Below, piece by piece: positions 4,270 to 37,415 of a stretch of DNA of 40,166 nucleotides. The translations under genes and the position numbers were made by a program. Source of the DNA: Asterionella formosa (lineage: Eukaryota); assembly GCA_002256025.1 (NCBI GenBank), contig NKIB01014852.1, positions 1 to 40,166 on the forward strand. The letters are read 5' to 3'. The notes under the pieces were generated by a model. The model was not told the origin of the DNA. It made no database searches and saw only the letters and a program-made list of their open reading frames with translations. Numbering within the stretch: the first letter of the stretch is position 1; each line of letters begins with the position of its first letter.

Positions 4270-4470
4270 TCCCAAGGTACCTGGTACCGGCACTGTTACC
4301 AGGTTACCATGTACAAGTTGTACCAGATACCACTCCTCACGGCCGATATAGAGATATCATTCTAGACTCTAAGATACCAGTACCAGCACTCTATCTAGAC
4401 CAATCATAGATACATAAATGTACCAGTGGTATATACCGGTAGTCGACATTTTTATGTACCGGTATACTCC
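4270..4470. repeat. ACC(W)GGT/GGTACC palindromic micro-repeat cluster
   Basis: GGTACCTGGTACCGG, TACCAGGT, TACCGGTA, GTACCGGTA upstream of the 4555 gene. Confidence 0.75.
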
Positions 4471-4554
4471 GTATCGGATAATAAAATCCAACATACATTC
4501 TCTTGGATGTGAGTAGGGGGTCTGCAACAAGAAGTTCATGAGAACAATGAGTTC

Positions 4555-5511
4555 ATGAGGACCATGATGGCGACGCAAGAACGGTCCCTAACTAATATAA
4601 CATGTCCATCGTATGGCAGCTGCGCTACTCTTAGTTTCCAAATTCAAGGACTCTACTATCTCTTCTGCCTTGTTTCTGCCGTAATTCAAACGGCCTATGT
4701 TGTATCCCGAATCTCCCGCCGAAGGAAGCAAAATTGTCCTTCGAAAGAACAACTAGGGATCGGAGAGTGGCATCTACTTCTCGGGAGAATCGGTCTTTTG
4801 ATTTTGACTGTAGGCACGGCACTAGACAACCTTCGGCTTTTTACTGGTGCGTTCACGCAAGCATGGCCATCGTCCATTTGGAATTCTCCCGATGCGAGAA
4901 TCGCCACAGTGACATGGGCTCTTGATGATTACAAAGGAGCACAAATTCAAAGCCTCCTATGGTGGATTTGTGCCTTTTTTCACATAGTCATGGTTCCTTT
5001 GAGCACGTTCTCGATCAAGAATCTAATTTATCAAGGGATTCATCAAGCTGAAGGTCGGTACAAAATGCACTTCGTACCTATCAACAAAGAAATGTGGTTT
5101 TTGTCGTCCACGATTATGACTCTTTGTCTATTAGTTCCAAGCGCATACGGATTTATAGTTGGGCCTATGCAAGGTCCGTTAGAAGTTCGTAGATTGTCTG
5201 GGATGAATACACTTTCATCGTCAATAAAGAGTCCCGTTTTGCACGGACTTTTGGCTGTGATCACATGGCAACTCTGCGTTATATTCGTGGCTTTGTTTCT
5301 TTTCATTATCCAGGGCAAATCTCGAAGATTTGAAAACATGATCCTCCTTTTGTGCAATATGTTTTGTTTGTTTTTGCAGGCTATCGCTAATTCGGGGGAT
5401 GGCGACTTGTCAGCTTTGTCCAACCTATCGGAGCAGCTAGCGATTGGCTCTCAGGTTTGGGCGGACTCGGTGCACAACAACGACGACGTTTTAGAACGCA
5501 AAAGGCAATAG
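4555..5511 (+). CDS. Uncharacterised multi-pass (~6-7 TM) membrane protein, intronless
   Basis: 318-aa ORF with regularly spaced hydrophobic segments and embedded polar residues (DN, H, N-x-x-E); start may be any of the first three Met. Confidence 0.8.
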   Translation: MRTMMATQERSLTNITCPSYGSCATLSFQIQGLYYLFCLVSAVIQTAYVVSRISRRRKQNCPSKEQLGIGEWHLLLGRIGLLILTVGTALDNLRLFTGAFTQAWPSSIWNSPDARIATVTWALDDYKGAQIQSLLWWICAFFHIVMVPLSTFSIKNLIYQGIHQAEGRYKMHFVPINKEMWFLSSTIMTLCLLVPSAYGFIVGPMQGPLEVRRLSGMNTLSSSIKSPVLHGLLAVITWQLCVIFVALFLFIIQGKSRRFENMILLLCNMFCLFLQAIANSGDGDLSALSNLSEQLAIGSQVWADSVHNNDDVLERKRQ

Positions 5512-5775
5512 CAATCCGCCTTCAAAATTACTATCCACCGATCTTTGGACGGAATAGAGCGCCTTAAATAATTACATTCTACTAAAAGTAGGATGAATGC
5601 AAGCTACAAAGAAATTGTCCTTTCGTATTCAGTTCACTTTTATCCCGAATGCGGAGTGAGTAAGTCTTAGACTGAGCTTATCCTTGAGCATTGCTACTGT
5701 AGATCAAGATGGCTAGAAGATTAAAACACACGAGTTTGCACTTTCCCATCAAGTTGCGATATGGAGCTTCTTGAC

Positions 5776-8325
5776 TTAGTTGCGGAGGAGAGCTGGGTGA
5801 ATGGTATCAGCGTAACGCAAAGATCCGAGGAGATCAACTTCCAAGGCTGCCACTCCACATGCATCAGAGCAAAACATAGAATCGAAGCGAGGATGCATCA
5901 CGCAACCCGCTCTTACACATTGTTGCAATGATTGGGTAGGGTTCGCGTGTTCTGGCAATCTCTCGAGAACAGATTTTTGAGAATAATATCGTCGTCCTGT
6001 CGAACCTTCGTCGCTGCCAACCGCCTCAACCAGGCCATCTGAGCTGTCTCGCTCCTCGCTAAGGATATCATCATCAGCAGGGTCAAAAAGATTTCTTCTT
6101 CGTTGCTCGTAACCAACAGGGAATTCAAGATTAGTATCGTTTTGAAGGAATACAATCATGTTATGACGATCAGTTGCTCCTTCTGCATCCTCAATTGACA
6201 CTAGAAGGCGTTCTAGTTCTCGGGAACGGACCTTTACACGTTCTTTTGGGCGATAGCCGTATCCTCGACCTAGACGAGTCACCATATCGGACCAATGCTT
6301 TTCTGCTTTATCATGACGAGAGTTAACTCTGCGAGTGTGACCGACAATGTGAGCAGGCGACACACTCCCTAGGGGCCACTTGTACTGGCCTGCGTGCTTG
6401 GAAAATGCAGATTGCCGGATGACTGCGGAAGTAGCGAGGCCACGGCGTAGCAGTTCGATACGTTCCTTCTCAAGGAGCATTTTAGCCTTCGGAAATTCCT
6501 CGAGGAAGGGTTTTTCCGCATGACAGCGGTCACAGAGTGCAACGAACGCTTCCTGGGTAGTGTCGCGAATCGTCAGTGGTTTATAGTGACCACCGCATGC
6601 CGCATGTCGCCAGGAGCTACACACGGAGCAACAAACCATTGGTTCATTGCAGTAGTTCTCTGTAACTTGCCAACAAAATGCGTGGTCTGGGGCAGTTGCA
6701 ACTTTCATAGATCGCATTGCCATACGATGAATTCGACAATGCGGGAGCTTTTCCAGAACACCGGGTTCTATTTTGTCGGCCAATCGTTGACGGATAGCAG
6801 TAGCATCGAGTCGGAAAGGGGAATCCTCGCTTGTAAGAGTTGGTTCTTCAACAAAGTCTTCTTCGTCGCTCTTTTCAGCATGAATTCTTCGCTCCTTTCG
6901 GATGATTGATACAGCTGGCCACCATGTATCGACAGGGTAAGGATATTCAACAGTCATACCAAGGCTAGACTTGACACTTGCAATAGTCGAGTTTTCCTTA
7001 GTCGACAATGGAGTTTGTTCTACAACTTCTGTCGTGGGAAGTGGACGATCAGACAACATATCAAGCTCTCTGAATTCTGGTTCCTTTGGAAGTCGAGGAA
7101 GTGTAGACTTGAATCCGGGAAGTTCGATGTACTCGTCTTCCTCGAGCTCGTCCTCTTCGGGTTCGGTGTCATACCAAACTGCCGTCTCTTTGAAGTTGAC
7201 TATGCATCTTGCAGCATCAACTGCTTTATCTTCGGCTTCAGCCGCTGCAACAATATCATTAACTGTTCCCTTAGTGAAATAATTTTCGGCTTCAGGTGCA
7301 GGGTCAAGATCAGGTTCATAATCCGGTTCGGGATTAGGTTCAGGCTCAGGATCGGGTGTGTTGGATTCCAAACCCTGTGGTGGTCCATCTCCGGCGAGGG
7401 CTGCAAGAGCTTCCTTGGCTAATTCGATTTCACCGTAAAGGTCATTTGTTGTGAAAGATGAAGCTGCATTTTCAGTCTTTATTTTCTTCGCGACGCCTCC
7501 GGCAAGGATCTTGTGGCCCTTGATGGTCGGCATAGGTTTCTTGCCCTTGGGTCTCCCACGTTTCTTCTTAATTTGAGTGGGGTCCTTGATAGCTGTCCCA
7601 CCCCCGTCAGTGATTGCCGGTTGCTTACCAGTGCCGGTCTTGGGTGTTTTTGGTGTTTTGTTTTTCCTTGTGATCTTGTCTTGTTCTTTCTTTACAGCAT
7701 TATCAGCTTTCGGTGTTTCCTCTCGCTGATCAAAGCTGCGCTTTCTTTGAATGCTATTCGATGGAGTTCTGCGAATGGCATTTGCAGCCAAAGAATCAGC
7801 GATAATAGCTTCAGCGGTCATTTCAGGTCCCCCCAGTGCATTCGAAATGGCCATGCTTGGTTGAATTTGTTGAAGATGCTGCTGCACCTGCTGATGGCGA
7901 CGGAGTTGGTCCTGGTGATGCATGATGAATTGTTCCTCGCGGAATTGAGCGGCCAAGGCGCTTCCTCCAAACTGAAGTTCATAGAGACTCGCAGCGTTCA
8001 AACCAGAACCAGATGCCCCTGCACCTTGCATAAGAGCCTGATGATCAAGTCGGTCTTGGAGAATTAAGCGCTGGATTTGAATGTCTCGTTGGAGCTCCTG
8101 CTGTCGTTGGATATAGAGGGCCTCTTCCATTTCCAAAGCCGCCTGCAACTGATAGCGCATTATAAATTTAAGAGAACAGTTAGAATAAGTGATAAGGGTT
8201 CTGTGCGGCAATAAGAAGTCTTTGCAATGATGTAGTCCTGTAATATGTTGAAACAGGCTCGAACTTACTGTTTGCCTATGTTGGCCAGAAGCAGTATCAT
8301 ACGGATTCAATCGATTGTGATCCAT
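5776..8325 (-). CDS. Chromatin-associated protein: Gln-rich N-terminus, AT-hook, PHD-like finger, C-terminal Cys4 zinc motif; probable exons 8325-8269 and 8148-5776 (~809 aa)
   Basis: KKKRGRPKGK AT-hook; MVCCSVCSSWRHAACG...LCDRC PHD-like; CVRAGC...FCSDACG; in-frame 120-nt intron 8268-8149 with GTAAGT donor, TTCTAAC branch and CAG acceptor; start Met uncertain (ORF is open to 8448). Confidence 0.85.
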   Translation of the reverse strand: MDHNRLNPYDTASGQHRQTVSSSLFQHITGLHHCKDFLLPHRTLITYSNCSLKFIMRYQLQAALEMEEALYIQRQQELQRDIQIQRLILQDRLDHQALMQGAGASGSGLNAASLYELQFGGSALAAQFREEQFIMHHQDQLRRHQQVQQHLQQIQPSMAISNALGGPEMTAEAIIADSLAANAIRRTPSNSIQRKRSFDQREETPKADNAVKKEQDKITRKNKTPKTPKTGTGKQPAITDGGGTAIKDPTQIKKKRGRPKGKKPMPTIKGHKILAGGVAKKIKTENAASSFTTNDLYGEIELAKEALAALAGDGPPQGLESNTPDPEPEPNPEPDYEPDLDPAPEAENYFTKGTVNDIVAAAEAEDKAVDAARCIVNFKETAVWYDTEPEEDELEEDEYIELPGFKSTLPRLPKEPEFRELDMLSDRPLPTTEVVEQTPLSTKENSTIASVKSSLGMTVEYPYPVDTWWPAVSIIRKERRIHAEKSDEEDFVEEPTLTSEDSPFRLDATAIRQRLADKIEPGVLEKLPHCRIHRMAMRSMKVATAPDHAFCWQVTENYCNEPMVCCSVCSSWRHAACGGHYKPLTIRDTTQEAFVALCDRCHAEKPFLEEFPKAKMLLEKERIELLRRGLATSAVIRQSAFSKHAGQYKWPLGSVSPAHIVGHTRRVNSRHDKAEKHWSDMVTRLGRGYGYRPKERVKVRSRELERLLVSIEDAEGATDRHNMIVFLQNDTNLEFPVGYEQRRRNLFDPADDDILSEERDSSDGLVEAVGSDEGSTGRRYYSQKSVLERLPEHANPTQSLQQCVRAGCVMHPRFDSMFCSDACGVAALEVDLLGSLRYADTIHPALLRN

Positions 8326-8992
8326 TTTGTGCGATGCGTGGATATTCAGCGCAATTAATTGTAAATGCGAAAGCTGCGATGGAGAAGGAAAAGGGGTTGA
8401 GATTGGCACATTTCCACGGCCCATCAGTTCCTGCGCAACTTGCAACAACTGTAGAGTCGTATTTGGAATGACGAAAAGATACGTATGGAGCTAAACAGAC
8501 CGCAATATTTGAAATTCTGCATGCTTCCGTCCTCTTGATATGATTGTGTCCTCCAACTTACCTCTCTACTTTTCCTAAGGGATAAGGATTGATGGCCATT
8601 ACTCAGGAGAAGATCAATGACTGGATATGAAAGCGAGTCAGAGTCGATTAAGAATTATAGGGAGTACAATCGATGTTGCGCTGAGTGAAGCACGAAAATT
8701 TTGATCATCATGAGTGCTTGTTACGAAGTGGGGACACAGCAGAGTTGGATTTCGTGTGTGGGGCAGATGTACTGCTGTGACAAAAATGAAAGACAGAATT
8801 AATTAATCCTCAAGAGTGATTTACTGTCAACATCCATAACACGGTACCCAGTATAGATAACTTTTATTCGTGACTTCAATTTTCGACACTTCACAAAGAA
8901 AGAAAATGATTTCCTGTATGATGGGCAAGTTGGATCGACATTATTGGTTCCCTTTAAATACTTCGCCTTGTTACTGCACATATTGTCCATTC

Positions 8993-9176
8993 TACCAGGT
9001 ACCAGTTCTGGTACCAGCACCATCCAACCGGTTGCAACGACACATCACATACCGGTACCAGGTACCCGGTTTATAGTTCGTATGCCGGTACCGGTATGTC
9101 TCGGCGGTGCAACAGGTACCAGGTACTCCGCCATACATGCATTCTAATCATCCGGTAGAATACAGGTACCGGTAGT
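8993..9176. repeat. ACC(W)GGT/GGTACC palindromic micro-repeat cluster
   Basis: ACCGGTACCAGGTACCCGGT, CCGGTACCGGTA, AGGTACCAGGTAC upstream of the PHD gene. Confidence 0.85.
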
Positions 9177-9799
9177 TCTTTTCAAAGGAACTTCAGACAA
9201 TATATTGGTTCGTAAATACCATACGCGATCTCATTTCGATTGTCATTATTCACCAGGATTCTGGTATACGGGGACGTATTCCCAACATACAGTTTGGATG
9301 CATAACAAAAATGGAATATATGATAGTAAATGCCAGTTAAGCTTTGAACCTCTATAAAAATTATTTTACCGCTTTGGACCTCTATACGTGGAATAACACG
9401 TTTTGTCACGAATTTTTGATAGTTTACAAATCTGAAACTATCGCTCCATTTGCAGCTGAGCATATAGCGCTTCTATATGCGTGAACGAGCTGCACCGAAA
9501 ATTCATTTCTGGTACAAGGTACATATAATCGATAAAAATACGTGAAAGTGTCGATCGACCTTTTTTGTACAAAATAGCTGTGGCCTCGGAGTACATGAGA
9601 ATATGTATACCGGTACACACATGAATTAGGTAAACCTTATTATCATATATTTATTTAGATCGCACTTACATTACCAGTAATTTAGCTCCATAGTAATTAT
9701 ACCAAATGAATTAATTGATGGCGCACCCGTCAAAACATGCAATAAAATGTGCGCCATACTACTAATATATATAATCCATTTTGTTTCATTGAAAACATC

Positions 9800-12070
9800 A
9801 TGATGATGCCAACAACAAAGAGGAAATCACCAAAATATTCCATCTCTGATAGGGAGGTGATGAATCTCATACTCACAAACATAGTGTCCAAACTGGAGGT
9901 TCTGAGAGCAAATAAAAATGGCATTTTGCCCCATGGGGCAATCAAGGAAATCGTCGAAAAGAGAAAGCTATTTCTCCTTTAGTTGAAAAAATGAAAAAGT
10001 TAACTATATCATTCAAAAGTTGACCAACAAAGGTGCCATTGTCACATACAACAAAAGCAGCGCACTATGGGGGAAGTTCTCCCCAAGATAATTCAAACTA
10101 TTTTACTTCATCATTGTCTACCCTGACACTGGCAAGTACAGATATGGTGGACAACATGGAAACCAGGTGTGCTGTTGATACTATGATTTCTATTTTGAAT
10201 GAAGATAAAAATATGGTTAATAGTATATTAGTTAGTACTACAAGTACAGCTGTAACTACTGAAGCTTCTAGTTCTGCTGTTGGGGTTAGAGTGCCAAAGG
10301 GAGCAACCAAAGCAGCCCCAATATCAATGGCCGCAAAAATCAATCATTGTTACCATTTTTCCATCAAGGAGTTCACAAGAGTGAGAAAACATGCACAGTA
10401 AACAGGAAGGTAGCTAAGCAAGACTTGAGAAGGGCACACTTACCTGTATAGTTTTGAGGCAAAAGAAGGCGCTTGCTATTCCTCCTGAGACTAAATTAAA
10501 CTTAGAAACAATCAAAAGTAGATCAAAGTGCAACATGAATGTCACAGGAGAAGAAGTTAACAAATTGAAAGCTCCGCCAATGGTGATTGAGGTCGAGCCC
10601 TTCAAAAGGAAACAACTGGAGGCAGACTCAAACATTGTAGCACATTCAAACATAATCATAAGGAGGGAGCATAATCAATTTTGCTGCGACCGTGTACTTA
10701 CTACTGGAGAGGGTTCATGCAGAGAAATGGTCATCTTGTAGAAGTAAGGAGAGGAGTCAAATTTGATGTCAAACGAGCGGAGTGGTGTACTGTCCAGAAC
10801 TTTCATCAGATGTACGACGATGTTTATGAGGAGCATGCCAAAACTGGAATTGCCTCAAAATTGGAACAGCCAGCTTAGTTCAATCAAAAAGGGAGCATTG
10901 TTCAACTGGAAGAAGAAGTATTTGGGTTGAAGGCATAATACAAACTCCTGCACCCCGATAAATTCATATTCGTTGATGAGGTGGGAAGCAGTACAAATCA
11001 AACCAAGTATAGCCACTATGGAGGGGAGAAACACTTGGTCTTACTTGGTGCAGCCGCTGCAAGGCCTCAACAAGGAAGGCGTGCTCACAAAGATGCCCAT
11101 TTCACTGTTCTGGTATTTACGGCTACTACTGGGGAACCCCTAATGAGCGCTATAATCTTCGCTGCCAAGGAACTGGAGTATGGTTGGTTACAAGGACTGT
11201 ATGTATTTGCAGATGAGGTGGGGGAAGAAGACGACCTTAAATCAAATACAGGGGGTAAGGGGAAACGATATCCACAGGGTCCTGGTGTGTGTGAGTTCAA
11301 AGGCAAAAAACTACCAACCATGTGCTGTTGTTCTGAAAGTGGGTCTATCACTGCAGATCTCCTTGTTCTTGCTATGCTTAAGGTCATCGATAAAAGTGAA
11401 CAAGTGTTTGACAGAACTGATCATGCCTGGCATTGCTACCTTTCTACTCCTTGATGGACATGGCTCATGTTTCGACTTGACTTTCTTGGAATATATAAAC
11501 AATCCTGCTAACCCATGGAGTGTATGTATTGGCGTGCCTTATGGTACCTTGTATTGGCAAGTCGGAGAATCCAGCCAGCAGAATGGAAGTTTAAAGATGA
11601 AATTGGTTAAGTAAAGAAACATTTACTTAGAAAGAAGTCGTAGGCAGACCTCCCATATGTAATTGATAAATACGATATCATTAGCCAACATTCTTGTAAA
11701 TTCGACTTGGCGACTCTGCTTTGCCAAAATCGGATCAAATCGACATGCAATATCTGAACGAGGTTGGGGGCCACTTAACTACCATTGCTTACTGGAGAAA
11801 GAAATACAGCTGACATGATCTTTCAGGGAGAAACATCCAATTGGCAACACAAATATACTCGCTCATGATTTGAATTTTTCTACGGGACTTTCTGGAAAGC
11901 TGACTGATTCAATTGTTGAACACCTAAATCGCATGAGAGCAAGGAATGGAGTTGATGCGACAGAGCAGATGCAAAAGTAAATAACAAACAGACATCGACA
12001 ATCACAAGAAACGCTCCTCAGTGTTGATTTTTACAAGCAGCACCTGCAGATTGGGTCCTGAAATGCTTCA
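9800..12070 (+). pseudogene. Degenerate pogo/CENP-B-like (DDE_1-type) transposase
   Basis: FIFVDEVG (~10965), LLLDGHGS (Asp at 11453) and IGVPYGTLYWQVGESSQQNG; broken by many stops and frameshifts over at least five ORF pieces. Confidence 0.85.
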
Positions 12071-12530
12071 CTAAATGTTCTCATCTGTACGATGGTCTTC
12101 CTCTTGATTCAACTCATTTCACAGGTGATTGTGTTGATTTCATGAAAAATCTTGAATGTACTGTTTAAAGTAGCTACTTACGCCGAGAGGAAGAGGAGTA
12201 AGCAAAATAATGATATGTGCATCTCTTGTACCAACAAAAAATCTGTTCTCACACTGAATGATTCCATCGACGGAAATACGTTCTAATACCTGTATAGCTA
12301 CATAAGTAACAGGTGATGCCAGCTTCATGGAGTAACAACTAATTTAGTTTTTCATTTCATTTCTTGTCAACAGCAACCTTTGGGACTAAATATGGAAGTA
12401 ACACAAGCTAATTGACGAGTTCAAAGCAAGATAATTATTGGTTAGTATATAAATCACCACAAAATTTCTTGAACAATTATGTTCGTATCTAGAAAAAAGA
12501 AAAAGTTGCCAATATTAGTATTTTTATGTA

Positions 12531-12890
12531 GGGTGTGGAGTGGCTTAGTGGTTTAGCACGGTGGCCTTTGATCTGAGGTTGTGAGGTTCGACTCCCGCAA
12601 TTTTTTTGAGAAGCAATTGTTGGGTTCGACTTCCTTACCGTCCCGCACGGTCTTGCGTGGTGTACAAGAAATAGTGGGTTGCCTCCCTACAAGCAGCTTG
12701 TGCCGCCTTCCTAGTAGGCGGTTGGAGTTTCACCTAACACTGCGGCTAAGACGATCACATTTCGTGAAAGGTGGTTGGGGAATCACCTACGCTAACAAAA
12801 CTAGGGAAGCACAGGTCTTGTTGGCAGGCAGCACAATTGGTACTTGCCTTGAAAAAGGGGAGTAGGAATGGGCTATAAAAGAGATTATCA
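12531..12890 (+). mobile_element. tRNA-headed SINE-like or Pol III structured RNA element
   Basis: A box TGGCTTAGTGG (12541) and B box GGTTCGACTCC (12585), second B-box-like GGTTCGACTTCC (12623), GC-richer hairpin-rich body within AT-rich flanks; no tRNA acceptor stem. Confidence 0.6.
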
Positions 12891-13246
12891 TTTTATATAC
12901 ATGGATCTCTAGCTTAAAGCAAGGCACATTAGGGTGATTGAGCTGGAGAAAATTGTAGAAGTCAAGATGGCCCCTTTGAAAATTTTAAGAGTGGACGCCA
13001 TTGTTTTCACCAAGAGGGAGCAAGTACAAGTTAGAATAAGTCTATTGAATCAAGGAAAAGATATCCTTTCAATTTTTCACACAGTAATGACTTGCTAGAG
13101 TCTAGCAGCATTTTGCGCGATAAAACAGGTAAACAAACTGTACATGAAAGTTGATTCAAAATTCATTACCTAGGTAGTTTGTTTTCTGCCACTTAACTAT
13201 CTAGAATCTACTTTTATAATGCCCCCATGGTTCAGAAAGACTTGCT

Positions 13247-13786
13247 TCAGGCATTGAAATCAAGATAATCGATAGAGTTCATCTTGTAGAAGGACTCGGC
13301 TTCAGTATCATACATATCAGCCTTCTCCTCCTCGGAGATCGACTTGAGCTGGTGTAACTTGCGTTCAAAGTTTCCTAGCTGTCGAGTCACACGTTCATGT
13401 TCCTGCCAAGGTATGAATAAACAGTCAGATTCGCGAACGTAAATTTACAATCAAGAAGAAATTCTAAAATGATACGTACCTCTCCACTGAGAAGCTTGCG
13501 TCCAGCTTGGTGGTCTTCCATTAGGGCCCTGCGATGATTGAGCATCTCCTCGAGTTTTTCCATGCGTCGTTCGTGCCTTTTTGAAACAAACTGGACCACA
13601 TTCTAAAAAAGGTGGAATGTGGAACGTTGAGCTTTAAGGAGCAAGGCATCTACATCAACACGCAATATGACTAACCTCCTTCTTGACATTGCTTAGATCA
13701 CGGAAATCTTTGATTCTCTGCTTGATATCGTTGGCGCTTGCAAAAGCCAAGAGGAGGAAAAGAGTCACGAAGGTAACGCAATTCAT
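13247..13786 (-). CDS. Small secreted/ER-entering helical protein, 129 aa, three exons (13786-13676, 13602-13480, 13402-13247)
   Basis: Two phase-0 GT-AG introns (73 and 77 nt) join an open frame MNCVTFVTLFLLLAFASA-NDIKQRIKDF...DHQAGRKLLSGEEHERVTRQLGNFERKL...DFNA*; clear signal peptide. Confidence 0.85.
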
Positions 13787-14674
13787 TTTACTTTGAATCT
13801 GATGGAATAGAAAAAAGGCTACGGTCAGCGACTGCTCTTTTTTAATTGCAGCTGGAAGAACTTTCTGGAAGGATGAATGAATGATCGAATGATGGGAAAG
13901 CTCAACGTAATAACTTTGATATCATCTACCGTAACTGAGAAGGCGTTTCATAATGACATGTTGGTCGTGAAACTGATAAAACACGACGAGACCGATTACT
14001 CTGCAATAGAGAATACTAAAAACTTAGCCGAAGGCAACCATGCCTCCGTTTTCTTCTTTTGCGTGTGTTCCGCTGCATTTCATTTCAGTTCTTTGAATGT
14101 TCTTTCCCTCTCATGTACAATGATATTCTCCCAACAGGAGGTTTGACGCACTCGAATCAACCCGACAACCGCCAACGGTCACTCACATTTGATTTCGTTT
14201 TTGTTTTGTGTTGATCCTTCAAGCGGGTCGTGTGATTTATGCATATACTATGAACTATTTTATATATATCTTTTGCTTTTTGTCATCCATGATCAGAATT
14301 CCCCTCATCGTATGTTGAATTCTGCATGCAAAATGTAGTTGGGAAAACGCTGCTATTTCGAAGCTGTGTACCTATACCGGTACCGGTATTCGACTCTCTC
14401 TGATGAACAAACCACAAATAACGCACACATTATTCCGCCTACCCCTGTATTTCCAGTAACTTCCTACCAGTAGGGTCTAATCTATCTTTGACCATCAGCA
14501 AGTTGCGGCAATTTTGCCATATCTAGTTCCACGTACCGGCAATACTGATTCGAATTCCAAATAAATACATGTGTCTCTTCTTGAAATCCGTATAAAAACC
14601 CAACCCAACCATCTTGTTGTTCCTATATATATTTAGCTTTGACCTAATTTAGCCTAAATATTGAGACCAATCTG

Positions 14675-14776: not shown

Positions 14777-14969
14777 GTTTAGAGGTGGGGTTAAAAATAT
14801 AATATTGAGTCAGAGTACTCAAACACACATTTCATACAAGTAAAACATAAATGTATATCGCTAAATGGAGCTTTCACCAAAATACACCCTTTCCATATGC
14901 TTAGAAACAGTCTTCTGACAAAGTAGGGGTATAGGTCAAAGCTATATATCGTCAGGATAGAGGATCTGT

Positions 14970-26848: not shown

Positions 26849-29800
26849 ATGATGAGCCGCTTCAAGACCTTAGGAGGTTTGCTCGACATGAAAGGCACTG
26901 ACGAGCCACCGTCACAACCACAGCAGCCAGCAGCATCAGCACGGCCAACGCTATCCGGGAGGCAAGGCTCAGTTATGAACTTTGAACCACGATCTCTCTC
27001 ATACCACAACATGATTCTCAACATTGACGGTTCTGTGTTGTCACAAGATCTCATCAAAGGCTTACGCGAAAGGCAGGGCTATTGTGTGACCTGTCCTGGT
27101 GAACCAGTTAAGCTGTACGAAATCCGCAAGTCGAAGTTGAATCCGCTCTGGAAATCGAAAGAAAACATTTCAGTGATGCACGAGTCTTACAATGGGGTGT
27201 GCCTGAAATGTAATCCCCAAATGGATCCGTTCAAAGAGCAACGACGAACTAGTCTGCAATTCAGTCTAAGTGCAGCGGGCAGCAGAGGTAGTAGCTTTCG
27301 CTCGGCAAAGCCGCATTATAGAACATCAGATAGTCTCCCTGGTAGTTTGCGATCTTCTTCAATGTCGAGAGAAGGCTCGTTACGCAGTGTGGAAGGATCG
27401 CCTTTACGCAGTCGACAAGAACGTTTTGGGTCACGAGATTCTTTAACTCCTTCCCTTTCACCAGCTCCTCGAGCAAACCTCCCTGGCTTTGATGTTACGA
27501 CCCGTGATCCTCGGTACAATTCATCGTTGACTTTTTTAGAGTCTAATGGCAGTTGCGAGGATTCTTCCGAAAAATACGAATCCTCGCCCGAGATATCAGG
27601 GAAGGAATCTGTTTTTTCCTCTCACCTGACATCCCTACCGAAACAGGAGGGAAATGACTGGGACAACTTTTCTATGCCCGACTTCTCGCAGGGTAGCTCC
27701 AACACGTTTAAATCTCATCGACAGAAGCCCCCCACCAAAATCAATCCGCAGCAACGTTTGTCATCAGTGAGGAACACGTCGATGAAGAGGAATTCACTCT
27801 CAGGGATTAGAGAGAACTCCGTGGGAGAGTTGCAGCGATCAGCGAATTCGATTCATGGGATCGATCATAATATGGACGTCAACACTAGAGAGGAGAACTT
27901 ATTTGATGCTAACCTTTTCAGCGACAGTCGCTCTTCCAAATCTGTGACGAAGAAGGACAAAAGTGACCGAAATAAAAAGAAGAAAAAGGACAAGGAACCA
28001 AAGGATAAGGCAAAGAAATCAAAAAGTAGGGGTAAATTAAAGGGTTCTTTTGAATTTATCGATGACTTTGCCACTGGTTGGCCTGAGCCATTCAACGAAA
28101 ATCAAGCCACAAACAATGGTTGTGAACCGGGCTTCGAGACGGAAGATTTGTTCGGCAGGTCAAACTTATTTGAATCGACTTCGGCTTTAAGTGACAATGA
28201 ATTACCCGTTCAACCCATTTCCAAGAATCAGAAAAGATTATCAGACGATTCTATGAACGATGAAGTTTTCCATTTCGAGTCGTCCTCTACGTCCATTACC
28301 GGCAACAACAGCTGGAGCGGAACACGAAGTCGAAACAACGATTCAAACAACTTTGCTCCTCCTCCACTCGAAGACGAGGCCGGTGGTCCGGATATAATTG
28401 TGTCAAGGCCAGTTACACTCCTACGAAAGGCATCTCCTTCTCTAACCCCACCACCTCGGGAAGCCAATCATGCGTTGCCGGATGACGAGGAAGACCAAGT
28501 CATTACACGTAAGACGCCTGAAGATCCAGTCGACCACGAAAAGTTGGATGAAATCAACGCCTTGCTTAAGGATGTGGCTGCCGCTGGGAGCATGGAATTT
28601 TTGACCGAGCTCTTAGTGAACACCATGCGATCATACCAAGATGTAATGGAAATTCAAGAATTGTGTTTAAGTTACATTTGGGATTTGTGCAAATTCAACG
28701 ATGCCAACAAATCTGCCATAATGTCAGCTGGTTTGCCGGAAGATATTATCAAGGCCATGAAGCTTTTTAAACAAAGTGTCAAAGTCCAGGAATGTGCGTG
28801 CGGAGCCCTCTGGTCACTTTCAGTGAACCAGTTCAACAGGATAGAACTTGTTCGTATAGGAGCAGTCGAACGAATTTTCCGAGCTCTGGAAATGCACTTA
28901 AAGATGGAAGCCTTTGTCGAGGTGGCATTTGGTGCCTTGCGGACGTTGTCTCCTGACCCCGAAGTGCGCGTGTCGATTGGGCAATTATTGGGTGCCCACC
29001 GAGTCTGTCGTGCAATGGGGTTACATCGACAGTCGACCAGCATTCAACGTGATGGATGTGCGTTCTTGTCGAATGTTGCAGTAGATATGGAAAATCAAGT
29101 GGTTTCTATCGTCACATTCGAGGAGTTGGAAGCCGTGGTGCGTGCCATGGGCGATCATTTGAGAAATGAAGCAGTCCTGGCAAGTGCCTGCTTTGCACTC
29201 AAGAACTACACATACGAAGAAAAGAATCTTCGAGCTTTACGGCAGTTTGACGAAGCAAGTTCCCTACTAGAAGATGCTTCGAAATATAGTAGTAGCATTG
29301 AATGTCGCAATGATGCGGCAGAAACCTTGGATCGAATTCGCATGCTCCAGGCAGAAGACGAGGCCCTTGAAGAGATGGCTTACTCTTCGCTTCTCGATAT
29401 GGAGGTATCGGCCATGGTGCAAAGTGCTGAAGATTCTGTAATGTCCATTATTGATATTCTGAGAGAGTATGAGTGGTCAGTGAGGATGATCTGTTATTGC
29501 CTTGATTCGTTGCATGAAATGGCAAAGCGAAGCGAAGAACATGTTGTGCTTATGACGCAAAACTTATCACTACGAGTCGTAATCAACGCAATGGAACGAC
29601 AGAGAATAAATGCAAAAGTTCAAGAGAAAGGTTGCGAGTTATTGAAAATACTTGCAATGCATTCAGCTCAATCAAGATCGTCCATTTGTGACGTGAATGG
29701 TTCCAATTTTGTCTTGACCGCGATGCGCATACACCGTGGTGTGGAAACTGTACAAATGGCAGCATTTGCGGCACTGAAAGCATTATCGGATGACCCTCGT

Positions 29801-29992
29801 TGCGCCAAGGAGGTTGCTCGAATTGGAGGACTTACGCGAATCAGAGATGCCTATCAGGAACGGAGCGTCAGAGAAACTTTGAAGGATGAGCGATCGATAC
29901 GGTCGCTCGCATTTCCTAGGAGTTCAATGAATGCGTCGATTCAAATGATGGGAAACTCCAAGATTCTTTCGTCAATTCTCTTGGTGGATTAA
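26849..29992 (+). CDS. Armadillo-repeat protein with N-terminal CxxC...CxxC motif and long Ser-rich disordered linker (~1047 aa)
   Basis: ARM-like repeats VQECACGALWSLS, IQRDGCAFLSNVA, VQEKGCELLKILA, VQMAAFAALKALS; first ATG at 26849. Confidence 0.9.
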   Translation: MMSRFKTLGGLLDMKGTDEPPSQPQQPAASARPTLSGRQGSVMNFEPRSLSYHNMILNIDGSVLSQDLIKGLRERQGYCVTCPGEPVKLYEIRKSKLNPLWKSKENISVMHESYNGVCLKCNPQMDPFKEQRRTSLQFSLSAAGSRGSSFRSAKPHYRTSDSLPGSLRSSSMSREGSLRSVEGSPLRSRQERFGSRDSLTPSLSPAPRANLPGFDVTTRDPRYNSSLTFLESNGSCEDSSEKYESSPEISGKESVFSSHLTSLPKQEGNDWDNFSMPDFSQGSSNTFKSHRQKPPTKINPQQRLSSVRNTSMKRNSLSGIRENSVGELQRSANSIHGIDHNMDVNTREENLFDANLFSDSRSSKSVTKKDKSDRNKKKKKDKEPKDKAKKSKSRGKLKGSFEFIDDFATGWPEPFNENQATNNGCEPGFETEDLFGRSNLFESTSALSDNELPVQPISKNQKRLSDDSMNDEVFHFESSSTSITGNNSWSGTRSRNNDSNNFAPPPLEDEAGGPDIIVSRPVTLLRKASPSLTPPPREANHALPDDEEDQVITRKTPEDPVDHEKLDEINALLKDVAAAGSMEFLTELLVNTMRSYQDVMEIQELCLSYIWDLCKFNDANKSAIMSAGLPEDIIKAMKLFKQSVKVQECACGALWSLSVNQFNRIELVRIGAVERIFRALEMHLKMEAFVEVAFGALRTLSPDPEVRVSIGQLLGAHRVCRAMGLHRQSTSIQRDGCAFLSNVAVDMENQVVSIVTFEELEAVVRAMGDHLRNEAVLASACFALKNYTYEEKNLRALRQFDEASSLLEDASKYSSSIECRNDAAETLDRIRMLQAEDEALEEMAYSSLLDMEVSAMVQSAEDSVMSIIDILREYEWSVRMICYCLDSLHEMAKRSEEHVVLMTQNLSLRVVINAMERQRINAKVQEKGCELLKILAMHSAQSRSSICDVNGSNFVLTAMRIHRGVETVQMAAFAALKALSDDPRCAKEVARIGGLTRIRDAYQERSVRETLKDERSIRSLAFPRSSMNASIQMMGNSKILSSILLVD

Positions 29993-31369: not shown

Positions 31370-31715
31370 TACCTGGTACCTGGTACCTCCTGTGCTTCGG
31401 GTGACAGGTATAACTATACTACGTATGTAGCTACAGGTAGTTGGAAAGCAACGACAGCGCACGCATCCATGATTATGATGGGTACCGGTACCCGGTACCC
31501 TAGTACCAGGTACAGTAACAGGTATTCCAGCCCACCACCGATACAAGGTTCCCCTAGGCACCTCGTACAAGGTACTGGTACTTGTTATCTACCAGGTACC
31601 AGGTACCCACCCGGTAGTGTCAGGCGCAGGGTTTCAGGTACACCTGTTAGTCTACCGATACTGGTACAATATCTGGTACATAGGAGTAGTCTACCAGTTA
31701 CCGAGCTACCGGTAG
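31370..31715. repeat. ACC(W)GGT/GGTACC palindromic micro-repeat cluster
   Basis: TACCTGGTACCTGGTACC, GGTACCGGTACCCGGTACC, TACCAGGTACCAGGTACC upstream of the FNR-like gene. Confidence 0.85.
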
Positions 31716-31868: not shown

Positions 31869-33313
31869 ATGCAGAGACAAACGAGGGCAATTGCCTTGTT
31901 GTCGGCTCTTTGCTTGATTCTTCCTTTGAGTTTGGACGCCTTCCAATCTCCAGCTATAACATTGTTGGTTCCGAGTCGCAAGCTAACCTCGCCCATTCAT
32001 TTACATGTAAATCCGTCACAGCGAAAATGTCTTCCGCTGGCAATGGGCAGCCTTCAAATGGTTAGTGCTGTTTCGAATGCTCATGTTGTAGTCTTGTTGT
32101 TAATTGACATTGATCGCTCGCAGATTCTTACAACTTCCTATTAACCCCTTGTCTCATGCAGCCACACGCTAACCTTGCAGTTTCAATTGATCAACCTTTA
32201 CTACCATCAATACCTCGATCACTTTTTATGACTTCTGTGCTGAAAATTTTGGTTTCTGACATTTTCAAAGCGGCCGTTGCTGCTTTTCTTGTGACCTTTT
32301 CCGTCTCAGTTTTGGCACGCACCCCCTCCTTTCAATTACAGGCAACCAACGTATGGAACCTTATAAAAGGCCAAGCAAATCGAATTTGGGAAATGATTCG
32401 TCCCGGTAGGGAAGGAGTTCCCATGACGTTTAACGAGGATGAAAATGAAGGCTGGGGTGTATGCACATTAAGGTCGAAGAAGAAGTTTGGTAGGACTAGT
32501 TTCATGCGGTACGATTTTGATTTGCCAAATCCAGATAATGTGCTGGCGCTGAAATTGGGACAGAAAGTGAACTTTTGTTGCTTGGATGAGAAGGGGGGTG
32601 TCGCCAAAGGAGAGTTTTATGCGTATCAGTCAGGAACTGGGAGGAACCAAAACCTCGGGTCCTTGTCCATTTTGGCTCCAGAACGAACGGTGGAGGACAC
32701 CCAATTTGCAATTGGAGCAGATTCTGCCAAATTTGTACGTAGATTAGGGGTGTGTTTTGAGATATATACCAGGTCCATATTGGAAACTTACTGTTGTGTT
32801 GTTGTTGCTGGCTTTTGTGTGTGTTTTGTTTTGTTCTAGATTCAAGTGTTGAAATATGATATGAAGATCGGGGACGAAGTCGCAGTTCGACCTGGAGCCG
32901 AAATGCTCGAATACCAAGGAAGTCACTTACCGGTGACTGTCATGGTCTACATCGCTTTTGGAGTGGGTATTGTACCCATTCTCGACCAACTCAGGGCTGT
33001 TTTGCCGCATGGGTCGTCGTCGGTTAAGGATGTGACTGTGGTCTATATTAATGACGACACTCTTGATTTTGACCAGACGGAACAGCAATTAGAAAAGGAA
33101 TATTTAAAGTACTCCACAAAGTTGTCGGTCACATGTGCTGTGGACAATTTGAGGGAGAATTCCCTGGCAGATAATGGTTCGGTGAATAGTGCTGTTCCTT
33201 CTTTTGCGCAAGGCACCATGGCGGTGCTATCAGTGCCAAAGGAAGTTGTCAGAATGGCATTGATGTACTTGAAAAAACGGGGATATCCGGAGGATTGTAT
33301 CTGTGTGCTGTAG
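31869..33313 (+). CDS. Plastid-targeted FNR/cytochrome b5 reductase-like protein with divergent motifs; exons 31869-32060, 32162-32734, 32840-33313 (412 aa)
   Basis: Two phase-0 GT-AG introns restore one frame; presequence ...LSLDA-FQSP; YDFDLP...LKLGQ, MKIGDEVAVRPG, IAFGVGIVPI, LKKRGYPED. Confidence 0.85.
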
Positions 33314-33619
33314 CTAATGTTCCCTTACTTAAGTTGGAGGAACAACATCTTGGACTTAACCACCGGCATTGCGTCATGGTTAAGTTGTGACTTCAGTTTC
33401 GTTACAATTCGTATCTTTTAGACATTCGATAAATATGATAGCTGAGCAAACAAATCTGGCTGAAATCAGGTCGTTCAATGGCTAAATCTGTCCAGATTCG
33501 ATACCTCTTGACGTACAAACCACTCCCCAGGGTTAGTCATTACTTATACATAGGTAAGTATATCCCTAGAACCTACGTTTCAATCTGTGTTCAATTGTTC
33601 TAGTTCCCCTGTTAGTTAT

Positions 33620-33985
33620 TTAAGCTTTGACGGCGAATTTAATGACAGGAAAGGAGGCTAGCTTCTTCTTCTGAGCAGGTGTCTTTTTAGACAGTTCCGA
33701 CTTGGTCAGTGCCTTGCGAATAGCACGTGTCTTCTTTGCTCTCAAATCCTTGGAAACATATTTGGATCCAGCGGCAGCCTTGCGAAGACCTTCCTTTTGT
33801 TGAGTGTTGTGCACAGTCAAAATGCGTGCAATGTTCTTGCGGACGCTCTTGATCTTGGCAACCTTGGAGGCAGCCCCTCCAGTGACCTTTGCAACCGCCA
33901 GTTCTGAAAGCTCCTTGCGTTGCTCACTCAGCTGCTTAAGGAGGTCCTCCTTGGTTTGTCCTCTCAATTCGTATGCCTTGACCAT
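33620..33985 (-). CDS. RPL35: 60S ribosomal protein L35 (uL29)
   Basis: VKAYELR...ELSELAVAKVTGGAASK...VRKNIARILTV...DLRAKKTRAIRKALT...FAVKA; probable 5'-UTR intron from GTGAGT at 34230. Confidence 0.97.
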   Translation of the reverse strand: MVKAYELRGQTKEDLLKQLSEQRKELSELAVAKVTGGAASKVAKIKSVRKNIARILTVHNTQQKEGLRKAAAGSKYVSKDLRAKKTRAIRKALTKSELSKKTPAQKKKLASFPVIKFAVKA

Positions 33986-34869
33986 GGTTTTGCTGTCTCT
34001 ATAGTCAGTCTGTTGTGTGTTAATCGGGGAATAGAAAGATTGAGTATATTTGCATCAAGCATCACCGTGACACGAGGCATAGGCCATTTGTCTGTATTGA
34101 GTGTTGCCCACTGTCAAACATCAAATTGAAGGCAATGAAAATGAAACTGGATCCTCTACAATCAGCAATTCGTGCTATAGGGAGTCACAGAAGGGAAAAT
34201 AAACTACAGCCAGCGCCATTGGTAACTCACATTCGTCGAGAGTAGTTCTATATAGAACGAAGGGGGGGTTGGTCTCGAATTGACAAACCAAAATGCCCTT
34301 ATGTATGTAGTAAGAGGTAAGTTTGATCGACTGCCTGGCCTTTGCATCCGCTTGCTTCTCATCCGTTTTGCACAACTCTTGGCTGATGTCTCGAGAATTT
34401 TAGTTTCCGATGCAAGAGTGCAGGTTTCTTATAGGGTGCATATTGTCTTTAGTATTGAACATACCAATAGTCTACCAGGGTATCTGGTATGTATTATGTT
34501 TGACAAGAATATTTCCGGTATGTAGGTAGGAGTACCAGGTTCCAGGGACCCATACAGGACGCAGAAGAATGATTTATGTACCGAATGCAAGTAGACTGGT
34601 ACCTTGTACAGTAGACTGGACCTACCACCGGTACCGGCAATCATGATGCTGTTCGTGTGTGTGGATGAATAAGCAATCAATCAGCGCCTGCTCCATGAAC
34701 AGATGCTTTGAACTTGATAGCATTGACAAGCAACCGGTAGAACAAGCAGCGGTGTTAATCACTATTATTTCTTTTCCATTGACTTCGGTTTACTTTCTCG
34801 TGGCCAGTCCCTAGGCTGCATGAGGAGTGCATCTTCTAGCATCGTACACTCGAAGGAGAGAAATCGATC

Positions 34870-36147
34870 ATGAAATCGCTGTATTCCGTGGTTTTGTTGG
34901 CACTGGTCCCGGCTACTGTTGACAGCTTCTCCGCTCATCTCTGGCGACCATGGGAACCCCCCACTCACTACAACTCGCTGCTGATCCTGGGAAAGAAGAA
35001 GAATAAACTATCGAACCACAACGATGCTGAATCACCCACCGAACAGGCGGCTTCCGCCACCGACGACGACGTCGACACTTCCAAAGGCGATCCCCAGCAG
35101 GACTCGAGCGCCGCCGACGACGATGGATATGAAAGCATGAGTCTCCAAGACGACCACGTTGTCCTTGAATCTCCTCGCGTGTTTGTCGCCGCCGCCGCTT
35201 CCCACGGAGATGCAGTGGCGGCACTCGCGCACACGCCTAACAACAATGCGCCTGTCAGACCTACGGTCCTCAGTTGTTGGCGTCCACTCTTGGCTATGAC
35301 TCGGCCATCTAATTTCCCTGGCGTTGTCATGTTCCATGTTCTCGGAACATACCTGGCCATAAAAGGAACTAAGGAGTCATTGACACAGCTATTGTCTACT
35401 CCCACCATGTGCGTCGTTATGCTCACGCTCGTGCTCACCTCGGCCACCTCCATGGTGGTCAATGATTATTATGATACCAAACTTGGTGTCGATTCCCTTA
35501 GACGAACGAGGCCTTTGGTGTCAGGAAGTGTACCCATGGCCGTCGCAAAACGATTTCTCTATTACCTATATGCAGCACTTTTGTTAAGTCTGGCTCTCGT
35601 TCCAGGTGTTCCCGCTAGACTATCCGTTGTGATTGGTCTCATGCTCACTTTTTGGTACACAAAACACTTGAAACCTATCACTTGGCTCAAGAATGTCGTT
35701 TGTGCATCCCTGATTGCGTTGTCTCCCTTAACATCAGGGTCAGCAGCATTGGCTGGGATCCATCAATCCACTTGGCACGTTGTTACTGTAATGCCATTAT
35801 GGCGATTGACTGGCATGCTCTTATGTGGCTTTCTCGGTCGTGAAATCATGATGGATATCACAGATGTTGTGGATGATCGTTTACACAGAGTGCGAACGGT
35901 GCCAGTCAAGTATGGCCGCAAATTTGCATCTCTCGTTGCTTTGTTGGCCACTGGACTTTCGGTACTCTTGGCGTTGTTGGGCAAGGAGTCACCACGACAG
36001 TGGGCATTCGCAGGTCTGGGAAGTGTGTGGTTGTTGACTAGAGCATGGCAAGTGTGGCGTGTAAATGGCGAAGATCAAAATGTCGTGGATCGGGCTATTG
36101 AAGATGGAAAGAAGAGTGTTTTGCTTCTCCTTGCTAGCTTTGTATGA
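34870..36147 (+). CDS. UbiA-superfamily prenyltransferase (DGGGP-synthase-like), predicted plastid-targeted
   Basis: MTRPSN, NDYYD...D...RPLVSG, YTKHLK...KN, REIMMDITDVVDD...RTVPVKYG; multiple TM helices; presequence ...ATVDS-FS. Confidence 0.9.
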   Translation: MKSLYSVVLLALVPATVDSFSAHLWRPWEPPTHYNSLLILGKKKNKLSNHNDAESPTEQAASATDDDVDTSKGDPQQDSSAADDDGYESMSLQDDHVVLESPRVFVAAAASHGDAVAALAHTPNNNAPVRPTVLSCWRPLLAMTRPSNFPGVVMFHVLGTYLAIKGTKESLTQLLSTPTMCVVMLTLVLTSATSMVVNDYYDTKLGVDSLRRTRPLVSGSVPMAVAKRFLYYLYAALLLSLALVPGVPARLSVVIGLMLTFWYTKHLKPITWLKNVVCASLIALSPLTSGSAALAGIHQSTWHVVTVMPLWRLTGMLLCGFLGREIMMDITDVVDDRLHRVRTVPVKYGRKFASLVALLATGLSVLLALLGKESPRQWAFAGLGSVWLLTRAWQVWRVNGEDQNVVDRAIEDGKKSVLLLLASFV

Positions 36148-36759
36148 CGAGATTGATTCACTTTTGCATGATTTTCGTATCGAAACAACCTAATTTATAT
36201 TAGTATCCTAAGAGTGATAGGGTGCTTACGTGAATGAATTTGAATTATATTGTTGATGTGCATGGCTGTAGTATACAGAGTTTCAACCGTCTACCGGTAT
36301 TGCATAAAGTAGAACAGTGCTGATAAATTTTGCTCAACTAGCGAAACTACCCCAGAATCTATCAAACAACTATGGATGTGACCAGAACATTGAAAATATC
36401 CTTTGACCAAAATAATTTCTGAGCCTTGTCTCAGTTACTGCTTGAACCAAGTGGTGTAACAACCAATACATCCATACGACACACAGGTGGAGCTCAACAA
36501 GAAACAAACAAAAATGAGTTGAAAGTTGTGGTGACTACAACTACACTGGATCAATTCAATCTGGCTACTAACTATAGTGGTGTCATCATATAATATTACA
36601 TGACAAGAAAATGATATTCAGCCCTCGAAACTGGGCATGCTTCGAAATACCAAATTAATTTGTTCTAAAATTATTATATCACAAATATTCGTTGGTGATA
36701 TGATATATAATATCGACATGGCACTCCGGTGCTTGAATTGCTTTAAATTACTTATCTGC

Positions 36760-36900
36760 ATCTTCTTGTTCCTTTTTGCTCCTGATGGGAAAATGCGTTG
36801 CTCTTACTTTAATGAACCTGGTGTTCTCCACAACTCAACAATGCCCTTTTGGCCAACTACAAATGACCAAATTGAAACTGCTTACAATGCAATGGGTAAG
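36760..36900 (+). pseudogene. PIF/Harbinger (DDE_Tnp_4-like) transposase fragment
   Basis: FLFAPDGKMRCSYFNEPGVLHNSTM resembles the F-x-PDG...N-x-PG-x-x-HDS motif, with the catalytic Asp replaced by Asn. Confidence 0.5.
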
Positions 36901-36909
36901 AAGAGTGAT

Positions 36910-37415
36910 TACCGGTATATACGTACCGGGATGTGTGCTGATTAGCGATAGAGTTACTTGATGAGTCACAAACAAGTACCAGGTACCGTAAAATACGATC
37001 GAGTCTGCGTCCGCCAAGCTTTTTTACATACCGGTAAACGGTACGTTAATTATAGGTATGGAGCACAGGTACCCGTACTGAGTAGTATACCTGATACCTG
37101 GTAGTACCAGGTATCAGGTAGAAGTAAAAAGACTACCAGGTACAGTACCTGGTACTACCTGGCATTAAGAACCTCTTTTCATCATGTGCGTCGCATCAGA
37201 ATTCGTTGTCGGAGTTGGCTTTTGTTGCTTGTTGTCGCCGCGAAATGTTCTTGCTTCCTTCTTGTTGATCCTCGCTCATAAGATACCGGTACGTACTGGT
37301 ACAGGAATTCGAAAGTTTCAATTACCAGAGGAAGGTCCGGTAAAAGATTTTTTTACTTAGGAAAAGATAAAGCTAAATATCTAGATTTCCTAACATTCCA
37401 GGTACCTGTTACCGG
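36910..37415. repeat. ACC(W)GGT/GGTACC palindromic micro-repeat cluster
   Basis: GTACCAGGTACC, TACCTGGTAGTACCAGGTA, TACCAGGTACAGTACCTGGTAC upstream of the thioredoxin gene. Confidence 0.85.

Follow-up and report, generated by a model that had tools for sequence, protein, structure and literature searches.

What generates the short palindromes that crowd the gene-flanking DNA of the diatom Asterionella formosa? The question is raised by a contig of 40,166 bases (NCBI GenBank assembly GCA_002256025.1, contig NKIB01014852.1; 42.9% G+C), hereafter the window, whose eukaryotic genes are compact and intron-poor. The public sequencing runs that contain stretches of the window are labelled freshwater, lake-water or algae metagenomes. 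A first-pass annotation had noticed palindromes of 6–7 bases, ACCGGT and ACC(A/T)GGT, interlocked through GGTACC and clustered on the 5′ side of essentially every gene, and had favored a lineage-specific promoter signature such as an array of sites for a dimeric transcription factor. We find that the feature is real and striking, and that it most likely records past mutation and is not a signal. The islands of palindromes are probably stacked excision footprints of a cut-and-paste transposon that inserts at TA and carries CC(A/T or G) termini.

A TA-bounded unit and its chains

The palindrome clusters lie where the first-pass annotation placed them, in numbers far above expectation. The window contains ACCGGT 33 times, ACC(A/T)GGT 28 times and GGTACC 35 times, compared with first-order expectations of ~4.8 for ACCGGT and ~4.5 for GGTACC. 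When k-mers were ranked without prior choice, the motif family came out on top at every length from 4 to 8. Among over-represented 8-mers it takes the top nine places and 12 of the top eighteen, led by TACCGGTA (21 copies, 0.2 expected). Shuffles that preserve dinucleotide composition, the control that the annotation had itself proposed, bear this out: across 100 of them TACCGGTA averaged 0.22 copies (largest 2), and TACCWGGTA (W, A or T), also observed 21 times, averaged 0.14 (largest 2). Half-site words counted in 500-bp bins fall into about ten islands, with almost none elsewhere in the window.

The palindromes are the core of a longer word. The repeat unit is TA-CCGG-TA or TA-CC(A/T)GG-TA: TA stands on both sides of 21 of the 91 CCGG and 21 of the 77 CCWGG occurrences in the window, and the next commonest flank pairs are found 5 and 3 times. 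A filler enclosed by two TAs is the arrangement expected of a Tc1/mariner-type footprint. Enrichment of such fillers reaches ~100-fold only for CCGG and CCWGG (98x and 118x in the window); TACTGGTA is enriched 10-fold, and the fuller join TACCATGGTA has 0 occurrences.

Units are chained by a strict rule. Neighboring units share a TA, and hence the GGTACC joints; the annotation was right to see GGTACC as the link between palindromes, the link being the TA common to adjacent units. Among successive full motifs no more than 30 nt apart, the spacing is exactly 6 or 7 nt in 7 of 14 pairs in the window, in 20 of 29 pairs in three metagenome loci of the CCWGG type (L047, L059 and L080) and in 10 of 12 pairs in four loci with CCGG only (L052, L037, L038 and L082). 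No pair in the window or in either set of loci lies 8 or 9 nt apart. Chains combine 6- and 7-base units, and where two W units adjoin, their central base agrees in 8 cases and differs in 6, which speaks for independent events within a chain. Growth of a microsatellite by replication slippage was considered and rejected: chains mix unit sizes, the identity of W varies, and most units are solitary or paired.

Many copies have decayed. One-mismatch copies number 75, compared with 13.6 expected (50 Markov simulations, largest 22), and 50 of the 75 have an intact copy within 300 bp; this zone makes up 24.8% of the window. The island at 34474–34640 consists entirely of decayed units.

Distribution relative to genes and transcripts

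We compared spacer classes between open reading frames (ORFs) of at least 130 aa, with close same-strand neighbors merged. The comparison covered the window together with seven metagenome loci that show the same motif habit; these seven were picked for their eukaryotic genes and several intergenic islands after the maps had been inspected, a weakness of the pooled set. Convergent spacers (n = 13, 8,822 bp) held 4.4 half-site words per kb, against 16.2 in divergent spacers (n = 12, 14,456 bp) and 22.0 in tandem spacers (n = 21, 19,796 bp), so that spacers with a gene start are 3–5 times denser than convergent ones. ORFs (73,022 bp) held 3.1 per kb, in line with the sparseness in coding sequence reported earlier. 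At the level of single spacers, the one-sided Mann–Whitney test gave p = 0.0013 for the pooled set, after exclusion of six spacers by which the loci had been fetched and of one doubtful window spacer (11452–15363). Pooled figures come to 13–20 half-site words per kb for spacers with a gene start, against 4.4–4.5 for convergent spacers. Restricted to spacers of at least 400 bp it gave p = 0.0375 (5 vs 19), and for the window alone p = 0.015 (3 vs 9).

The window's three convergent spacers (792 bp in total) contain 0 half-site words, which agrees with the absence described by the first-pass annotation; in the pooled set, motifs were found in 4 of the 13 convergent spacers. The bias cannot be put down to TA supply, because the three window spacers offer 73 TAs yet contain no motif. 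A caveat is the small length of convergent spacers, of which at least one is wholly transcribed (the RNA contig 32161–33896 crosses the spacer 33314–33619). A cruder pool of all 21 long loci, which mixes bacteria (e.g. L026, L044 and L075) with loci that have the repeat in long ORFs (L010, L012, L035 and L084), showed no 5′ bias, with 1.49, 1.83 and 0.97 full motifs per kb in convergent, tandem and divergent spacers. The 5′ enrichment is real in the spacer test but weaker than originally claimed, and "essentially every gene" is too strong: 7 of the 11 ORF starts in the window have at least two full motifs within ~1 kb upstream, one has a single motif (19540), two share a decayed island and one (39717) has none.

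Placement upstream of genes is loose. The distance from motif to first ATG has a median of 580 bp (interquartile range 270–940, 10th–90th percentile 162–1215, n = 112), and the position constrained relative to the gene start that would mark a binding-site array is not seen. Single spacers of the window and the seven loci differ widely in copy number, some with 0 motifs and others with more than 20. Divided into fifths from the upstream stop codon, tandem spacers hold 6, 8, 31, 15 and 15 motifs, the first 40% being avoided. PolyA RNA contigs (run X9) begin at 26719 for the ARM-repeat gene (ATG at 26849), at 34805 for the UbiA gene and at 37788 for the thioredoxin gene; the islands lie 90–900 bp upstream of these 5′ ends and outside the listed contigs. 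Window regions without RNA contig cover were not taken as evidence of silence. One exception to the 5′ rule is the solitary unit at 25773, which is probably in the 3′ untranslated region (UTR) of the IGPS-PRAI gene because it falls inside that gene's RNA contig (23966–25894). The gene-poor 9.7–19.5 kb stretch has a low density, about 4–6 half-site words per kb, which may lean towards targeting rather than purging as the source of the bias, although the stretch contains no recognisable domain. Coordinates are collected in Table 1.

Table 1. Motif islands, genes and introns of the window, and TA-flanked elements in other contigs (window positions unless a locus is named).
Feature	Position	Strand	Details
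Island	4276–4464		90–280 bp upstream of + ORF 4555–5511; TACCTGGTA at 4278, TACCGGTA at 4434 and 4457, plus decayed units
Island	8843–9615		Upstream of − ORF 5776–8424; TACCGGTA x4 (9050, 9089, 9167, 9608), TACCAGGTA x3 (8993, 9056, 9117), GGTACC chains
Two-unit chain TACCGGTACCGGTA	14375–14388		Gene-poor DNA
Two solitary units	15835–16936		TACCGGTA at 15835, TACCAGGTA at 16928; gene-poor DNA, no recognisable protein domain
Single TACCGGTA	19540–19547		~250 bp upstream of + ORF 19791–20522
Island	22269–22660		At/upstream of the NPL4 5′ end (− ORF 20727–22340); chains 22269–22292, 22541–22556, 22569–22577, 22637–22645
Island	23257–23431		Far end of the NPL4 divergent spacer, just upstream of + ORF 23464 and IGPS-PRAI; TACCCGGTA at 23257, TACCAGGTACCGGTA at 23417
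Solitary TACCGGTA	25773–25780		Within the IGPS-PRAI RNA contig
Island	26042–26630		Upstream of the ARM-repeat gene; TACCGGTA at 26042 and 26189, TACCAGGTA at 26622; split by a 406-bp polymorphic repeat insertion
Island	31370–31714		440–790 bp upstream of the + ORF starting at 32156; chains/units: 4 CCWGG-type, 2 CCGG-type
Decayed island	34474–34640		Divergent spacer, ribosomal L29-family gene (−)/UbiA; 0 intact TA-bounded units, 14 half-site words
Largest island	36292–37416		Tandem spacer, UbiA/thioredoxin gene; 9 full motifs, 46 half-site words; solitary unit at 36292
NPL4 gene	20730–22379	−	Pfam match
IGPS-PRAI tryptophan-synthesis fusion	23967–25598	+	Pfam match
ARM-repeat protein	26774–29989	+	Pfam match
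Ribosomal L29-family protein	33623–34054	−	Pfam match
UbiA prenyltransferase	34840–36144	+	Pfam match
Thioredoxin	37751–38637		Two ORFs with an RNA-supported intron between; sub-threshold Pfam matches (17.5 and 22.4 bits; cut-off 23.5)
Intron	32735–32839	+	GT..AG, RNA contigs
Intron in ribosomal L29-family gene	34010–34230	−	GT..AG, RNA contigs
Intron	38248–38324	+	GT..AG, RNA contigs
TA-flanked inverted-repeat element, CCG termini	L068 660–846		28/30 terminal bases paired; array-bearing contig
TA-flanked inverted-repeat element, CCG termini	L041 1283–1768		26/30 terminal bases paired; array-bearing contig
TA-flanked 51-base hairpin, CCG termini	L113 236–286		29/30 terminal bases paired; adjoins arrays

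The genes next to the islands had been described as functionally unrelated, covering the ribosome, tryptophan synthesis, protein degradation and chromatin. Pfam supports the calls for ribosomal L29, IGPS + PRAI and NPL4, whereas the "chromatin" gene is without Pfam support. The intron at 34010–34230 places the first exon of the ribosomal L29-family gene beyond 34230. The RNA contig of the UbiA gene ends at 36219. The spacer 8491–10938 contains 7 full motifs and 45 half-site words.

Two regions call for separate mention. Between 9700 and 19500 (~10 kb) there is no ORF of at least 200 aa (longest 181 aa), and ORFs of at least 65 aa contain 0 Pfam domains; the sole match to this stretch in the fetched loci is 171 bp at 75% identity in the marine contig L025 (window 16265–16431). 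An ORF of 163 aa encloses the island at 31370–31714; Pfam finds no match for this ORF, and none of the listed RNA contigs contains a piece of it. A polyA RNA contig (30420–31284) between the ARM-repeat gene and this island shows neither a convincing ORF nor a Pfam match, and could represent either a small gene missed in annotation or a transcript that encodes no protein. In runs X2 and X14 a TTAACC insertion stands precisely at the end of this contig (31284).

Strains, other organisms and candidate parent elements

Contigs of three DNA runs allowed a strain comparison over 19.9 kb. A contig of run X2 (6,942 bases) spans three islands and differs from the window by 20 substitutions and 13 gap letters, the latter made up of the TTAACC insertion, a one-base deletion and a 6-base indel at 37050. 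Because it crosses the three islands without gaps of the canonical unit, the islands are old and common to the strains. The indel at 37050 reads TA-TAGG-TA in the window and TA in X2; the TA is duplicated, the filler is another one, and we set it aside as ambiguous. The decayed island at 34474–34640 differs from X2 at 4 positions in 167 bp, compared with 10 in 785 bp for its spacer and 20 for the whole contig. In this small sample the island does not show the fewer changes than surrounding DNA that would mark a binding-site array.

In run X2, contigs from elsewhere in the genome match 20–30 array bases and then diverge, with a flank agreement of 0.37–0.46. The divergence of these flanks rules out a single dispersed repeat family. 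Mapping to one family of transposable elements was an outcome that the first-pass annotation had named as refuting its own reading, and the motif does not map in this way.

The same habit recurs outside this genome. A metagenome search for three chained units returned at least 120 stretches, with 35–70% G+C among the matches listed; some of these matches are bacterial or in long ORFs and are probably unrelated, whereas several lie in eukaryotic contigs that have more than one intergenic island. L047, L059 and L080 hold mostly CCWGG, and L052, L037, L038 and L082 almost only CCGG. DUF6824 or DUF6818, Pfam families that we take to be typical of diatoms, are present in three contigs (L059, L076 and L018). 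The most direct evidence comes from two homologous contigs of one metagenome, L024 and L073 (64% G+C, 87.9% identity where aligned, 26 internal indels). Two of their differences are a clean CCGGTA at a single TA, two others are CCGGTA insertions with one mutated base, and a further one is a three-unit block. The pair shows directly that TA to TA-CCGG-TA, or the reverse, is a recurrent mutation in an organism other than the window's. Presence and absence against an empty site with a single TA is seen in this pair, compared with 0 of the 12 listed indels of the window lineage. Three array-bearing contigs, from other organisms with CCGG arrays, also contain TA-flanked inverted-repeat elements with CCG termini (Table 1).

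Some islands in the other loci (L059 9855–10030, L080 10650–10700 and 14680–14900, L047 3471–3560) also hold other TA-bounded micro-units: runs of TA-G-TA and TA-C-TA, chains of TA-CTG-TA, and TAGACTA. TAGTA is enriched 4.5x in L047, L059 and L080 together. These extra units suggest that more than one type of footprint, or more than one TA-inserting element, has marked this DNA. In L055 (7,386 bp) and L053, 84 copies of TACCGGTA and 216 of GGTACC stand among (CCTA)n and (GGTA)n tracts that adjoin a SET-domain ORF; here the motif words have grown into a true satellite. Two further leads were dropped. A 17-base array word matched 7 viral contigs, and these matches are taken as chance because none of the contigs is motif-enriched; the ARM-repeat gene of L077 was rejected as an orthologue of the window's (29% identity over 103 residues).

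Candidates for a parent element within the window were also rejected. Two scans of the window lineage for TA-flanked inverted repeats returned only array-against-array matches, and the label "transposable-element relics" that had been given to parts of the window finds no Pfam support among its ORFs. An ORF of 89 aa at 1167–1433 (+) includes a stretch that resembles a helix-turn-helix and matches DUF7769 below threshold (E 0.0007, 19.6 bits, cut-off 27); it may be the remnant of a DNA-binding or transposase gene. It has no relative among the longer proteins and no flanking inverted repeat, and it was dropped as a lead. The 406-bp element inside the ARM-gene island (26200–26605) begins with TG, ends with CA and has duplicated a 6-bp target (GTACTT). 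Contigs of runs X2 and X14 lack it (412 bases skipped), and its depth in X2 is ~500x single-copy; it looks like a polymorphic solo long terminal repeat or a similar high-copy repeat. Because of its ends and its 6-bp duplication, and because it has no inverted repeat, it is not a TA-inserting element, and it was rejected as the parent.

Origin of the islands and what it would mean

How could a transposon write such chains? An element of the Tc1/mariner/pogo type would insert at a TA and duplicate it, and on excision its staggered cuts would leave a few of its end bases, CC.. from one terminus and ..GG from the other, enclosed by the duplicated TAs. TA-CC(A/T)GG-TA would arise when a single mismatch between the joined overhangs is repaired in favor of either base; a two-base overlap between three-base overhangs, CCG and CGG, would give exactly CCGG, a step that we infer. 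Because every scar offers two fresh TAs, later insertions and excisions there would build chains that share a TA, with GGTACC joints and mixed 6- and 7-base units. Scars would accumulate in the untranscribed DNA upstream of genes, and the 5′ bias could reflect a landing preference for accessible promoter DNA, selection that removes transcribed scars, or both. Mariner and Sleeping Beauty transposases cut three bases inside the element, so that the donor keeps 3′ overhangs, and end joining produces footprints identical to those overhangs between duplicated TAs (PMC7827188). The unit grammar, its over-representation, the 5′ bias and the true indel of L024/L073 are direct observations. For the window's lineage, we infer the transposon origin of the scars and the cause of their bias.

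Several points weigh against this origin. A filler of 5 bases calls for either a stagger of unusual length or a 3 + 3 join in which the ends overlap by one base. The ~85 kb made up of the window, L047, L059 and L080 yielded no TA-flanked element with CCA, CCT or CCG termini, and no transposase domain was detected in 111 ORFs of the window (27 + 84; E ≤ 0.01 or E ≤ 0.05) or in 115 long ORFs (52 + 63) of the fetched loci. None of the 12 indels listed in the strain comparison (26 more are not listed) is a CCGGTA or CCWGGTA unit, nor is there a canonical unit among the 13 gap letters of the X2 contig that spans three islands; the strains give no sign of the process being active in this lineage. 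The direct indels and the CCG-ended elements belong to organisms other than the window's. As for the bias, mere purging from transcribed DNA in a compact genome would give the same pattern.

The missing parent element would be no difficulty if the palindromes multiplied without one. Palindromic units could be fragile, with breaks repaired by snap-back or templated synthesis (end joining of the polymerase-theta type, or hairpin opening) or by slippage, so that units are copied beside themselves without a mobile element. The units are indeed perfect or near-perfect palindromes, strongly clustered, and some chains are pure repeats of one unit. Against such copying stand the solitary units in unrelated unique contexts without a nearby template (15835, 19540, 25773 and 36292), the identical 6-base filler at a single TA in an unrelated organism with 64% G+C, and the filler itself, which is stereotyped rather than copied from its local context. 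Chains moreover combine both unit lengths, copies never abut without sharing a TA, and the strain indels that are listed include no change in array length. We therefore consider transposon-free propagation unlikely.

Of the mechanisms that the first-pass annotation named, a self-propagating micro-palindrome in open promoter DNA, tolerated or targeted there, fits best, and its favored promoter signature fits poorly. A dimeric protein might bind the palindrome TACC(W)GGTA, or the palindrome might exclude nucleosomes or form cruciforms, with selection keeping the arrays; TACCGGTACCAGGTACC is the sequence named as bait for a DNA pull-down. The palindromic motif, the denser spacers with gene starts, the placement of islands upstream of RNA contig 5′ ends and the same habit upstream of ORFs in other diatom-like contigs all accord with this. 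But half-site spacing varies (CCGG or CCWGG), position is as loose and copy number as variable as described above, and a binding model gives no reason for the TA boundary or for chaining through a shared TA. Islands also decay freely and vary between strains, as the 34474–34640 island does, units are found in gene-poor DNA and a 3′ UTR, and one gene start lacks them altogether. On this evidence a promoter element maintained by selection is very unlikely. It is barely credible that the islands are fragments of one dispersed repeat family, a miniature inverted-repeat transposable element (MITE) or satellite lying near genes. Bins that hold arrays do reach 4–12 times the baseline depth in DNA runs, yet contigs from elsewhere share array bases only, a comparison of the window with itself by blast finds no repeat around the islands, and no inverted-repeat element spans them.

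If the islands are stacked excision footprints, their chemistry is familiar. Excision footprints of this kind are textbook knowledge: the Sleeping Beauty footprint, TA-C(A/T)G-TA, comes from two identical overhangs whose mismatched center is repaired either way, mariner/Mos1 has three-base overhangs, and Tc1, Tc3 and Minos also leave the canonical Tc1/mariner forms. The window's units share with these a filler between two TAs, a short palindrome, an A/T-ambiguous center and a stereotyped product, and in L024/L073 the insertion shows as an indel at a single TA. Unlike them, the window's fillers are CCGG and CC(A/T)GG, no element with matching ends was found in the window lineage, and the scars are the most over-represented words, chained and concentrated upstream of genes. 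Stowaway-type and other MITEs derived from Tc1/mariner likewise use a TA target, lie in gene-flanking DNA and are small and non-coding, and the three CCG-ended elements are in array-bearing contigs; the window, by contrast, is filled by remnants of 6–7 bases, and no MITE was found in it. Promoter-biased insertion is known from the P element, Mutator, mPing and Hermes, the last of which favors nucleosome-free DNA. As with those elements, events in the window concentrate upstream of genes and are scarcer in coding and 3′ DNA. Those elements, however, belong to other superfamilies with other target sites; the window's bias is read from scars, and could also arise if selection removed scars from transcripts. 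What is unusual is not the footprint chemistry but the scale, the stacking into chains and the concentration upstream of genes. No published description of stacked, gene-upstream footprints on such a scale was found in an abstract-level search outside subscription journals.

A bolder version holds that a TA-specific transposon of one clade of diatoms integrates almost only in nucleosome-free promoters, and that the stacked scars, arrays rich in CCGG and CCWGG, now serve as promoter architecture through cruciforms, nucleosome exclusion or factor recruitment. We regard this as quite unlikely; if true, transposition would have built a lineage-wide promoter feature and a long-term readable record of open chromatin.

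Should the footprint origin be correct, the commonest short words in this diatom's intergenic DNA would be by-products of transposition and not a regulatory code, and any search for motifs in diatom promoters would have to mask these words first. The scars would form a cumulative record, legible from sequence, of where cut-and-paste elements landed over evolutionary time. Insertion-site preference, and indirectly promoter accessibility, would then become measurable in organisms without chromatin data. Scars also supply promoters with CpG and CCWGG sites and with DNA able to form hairpins, material from which regulatory change can start. The scar habit occurs in several unrelated metagenome contigs and may be widespread among microbial eukaryotes.

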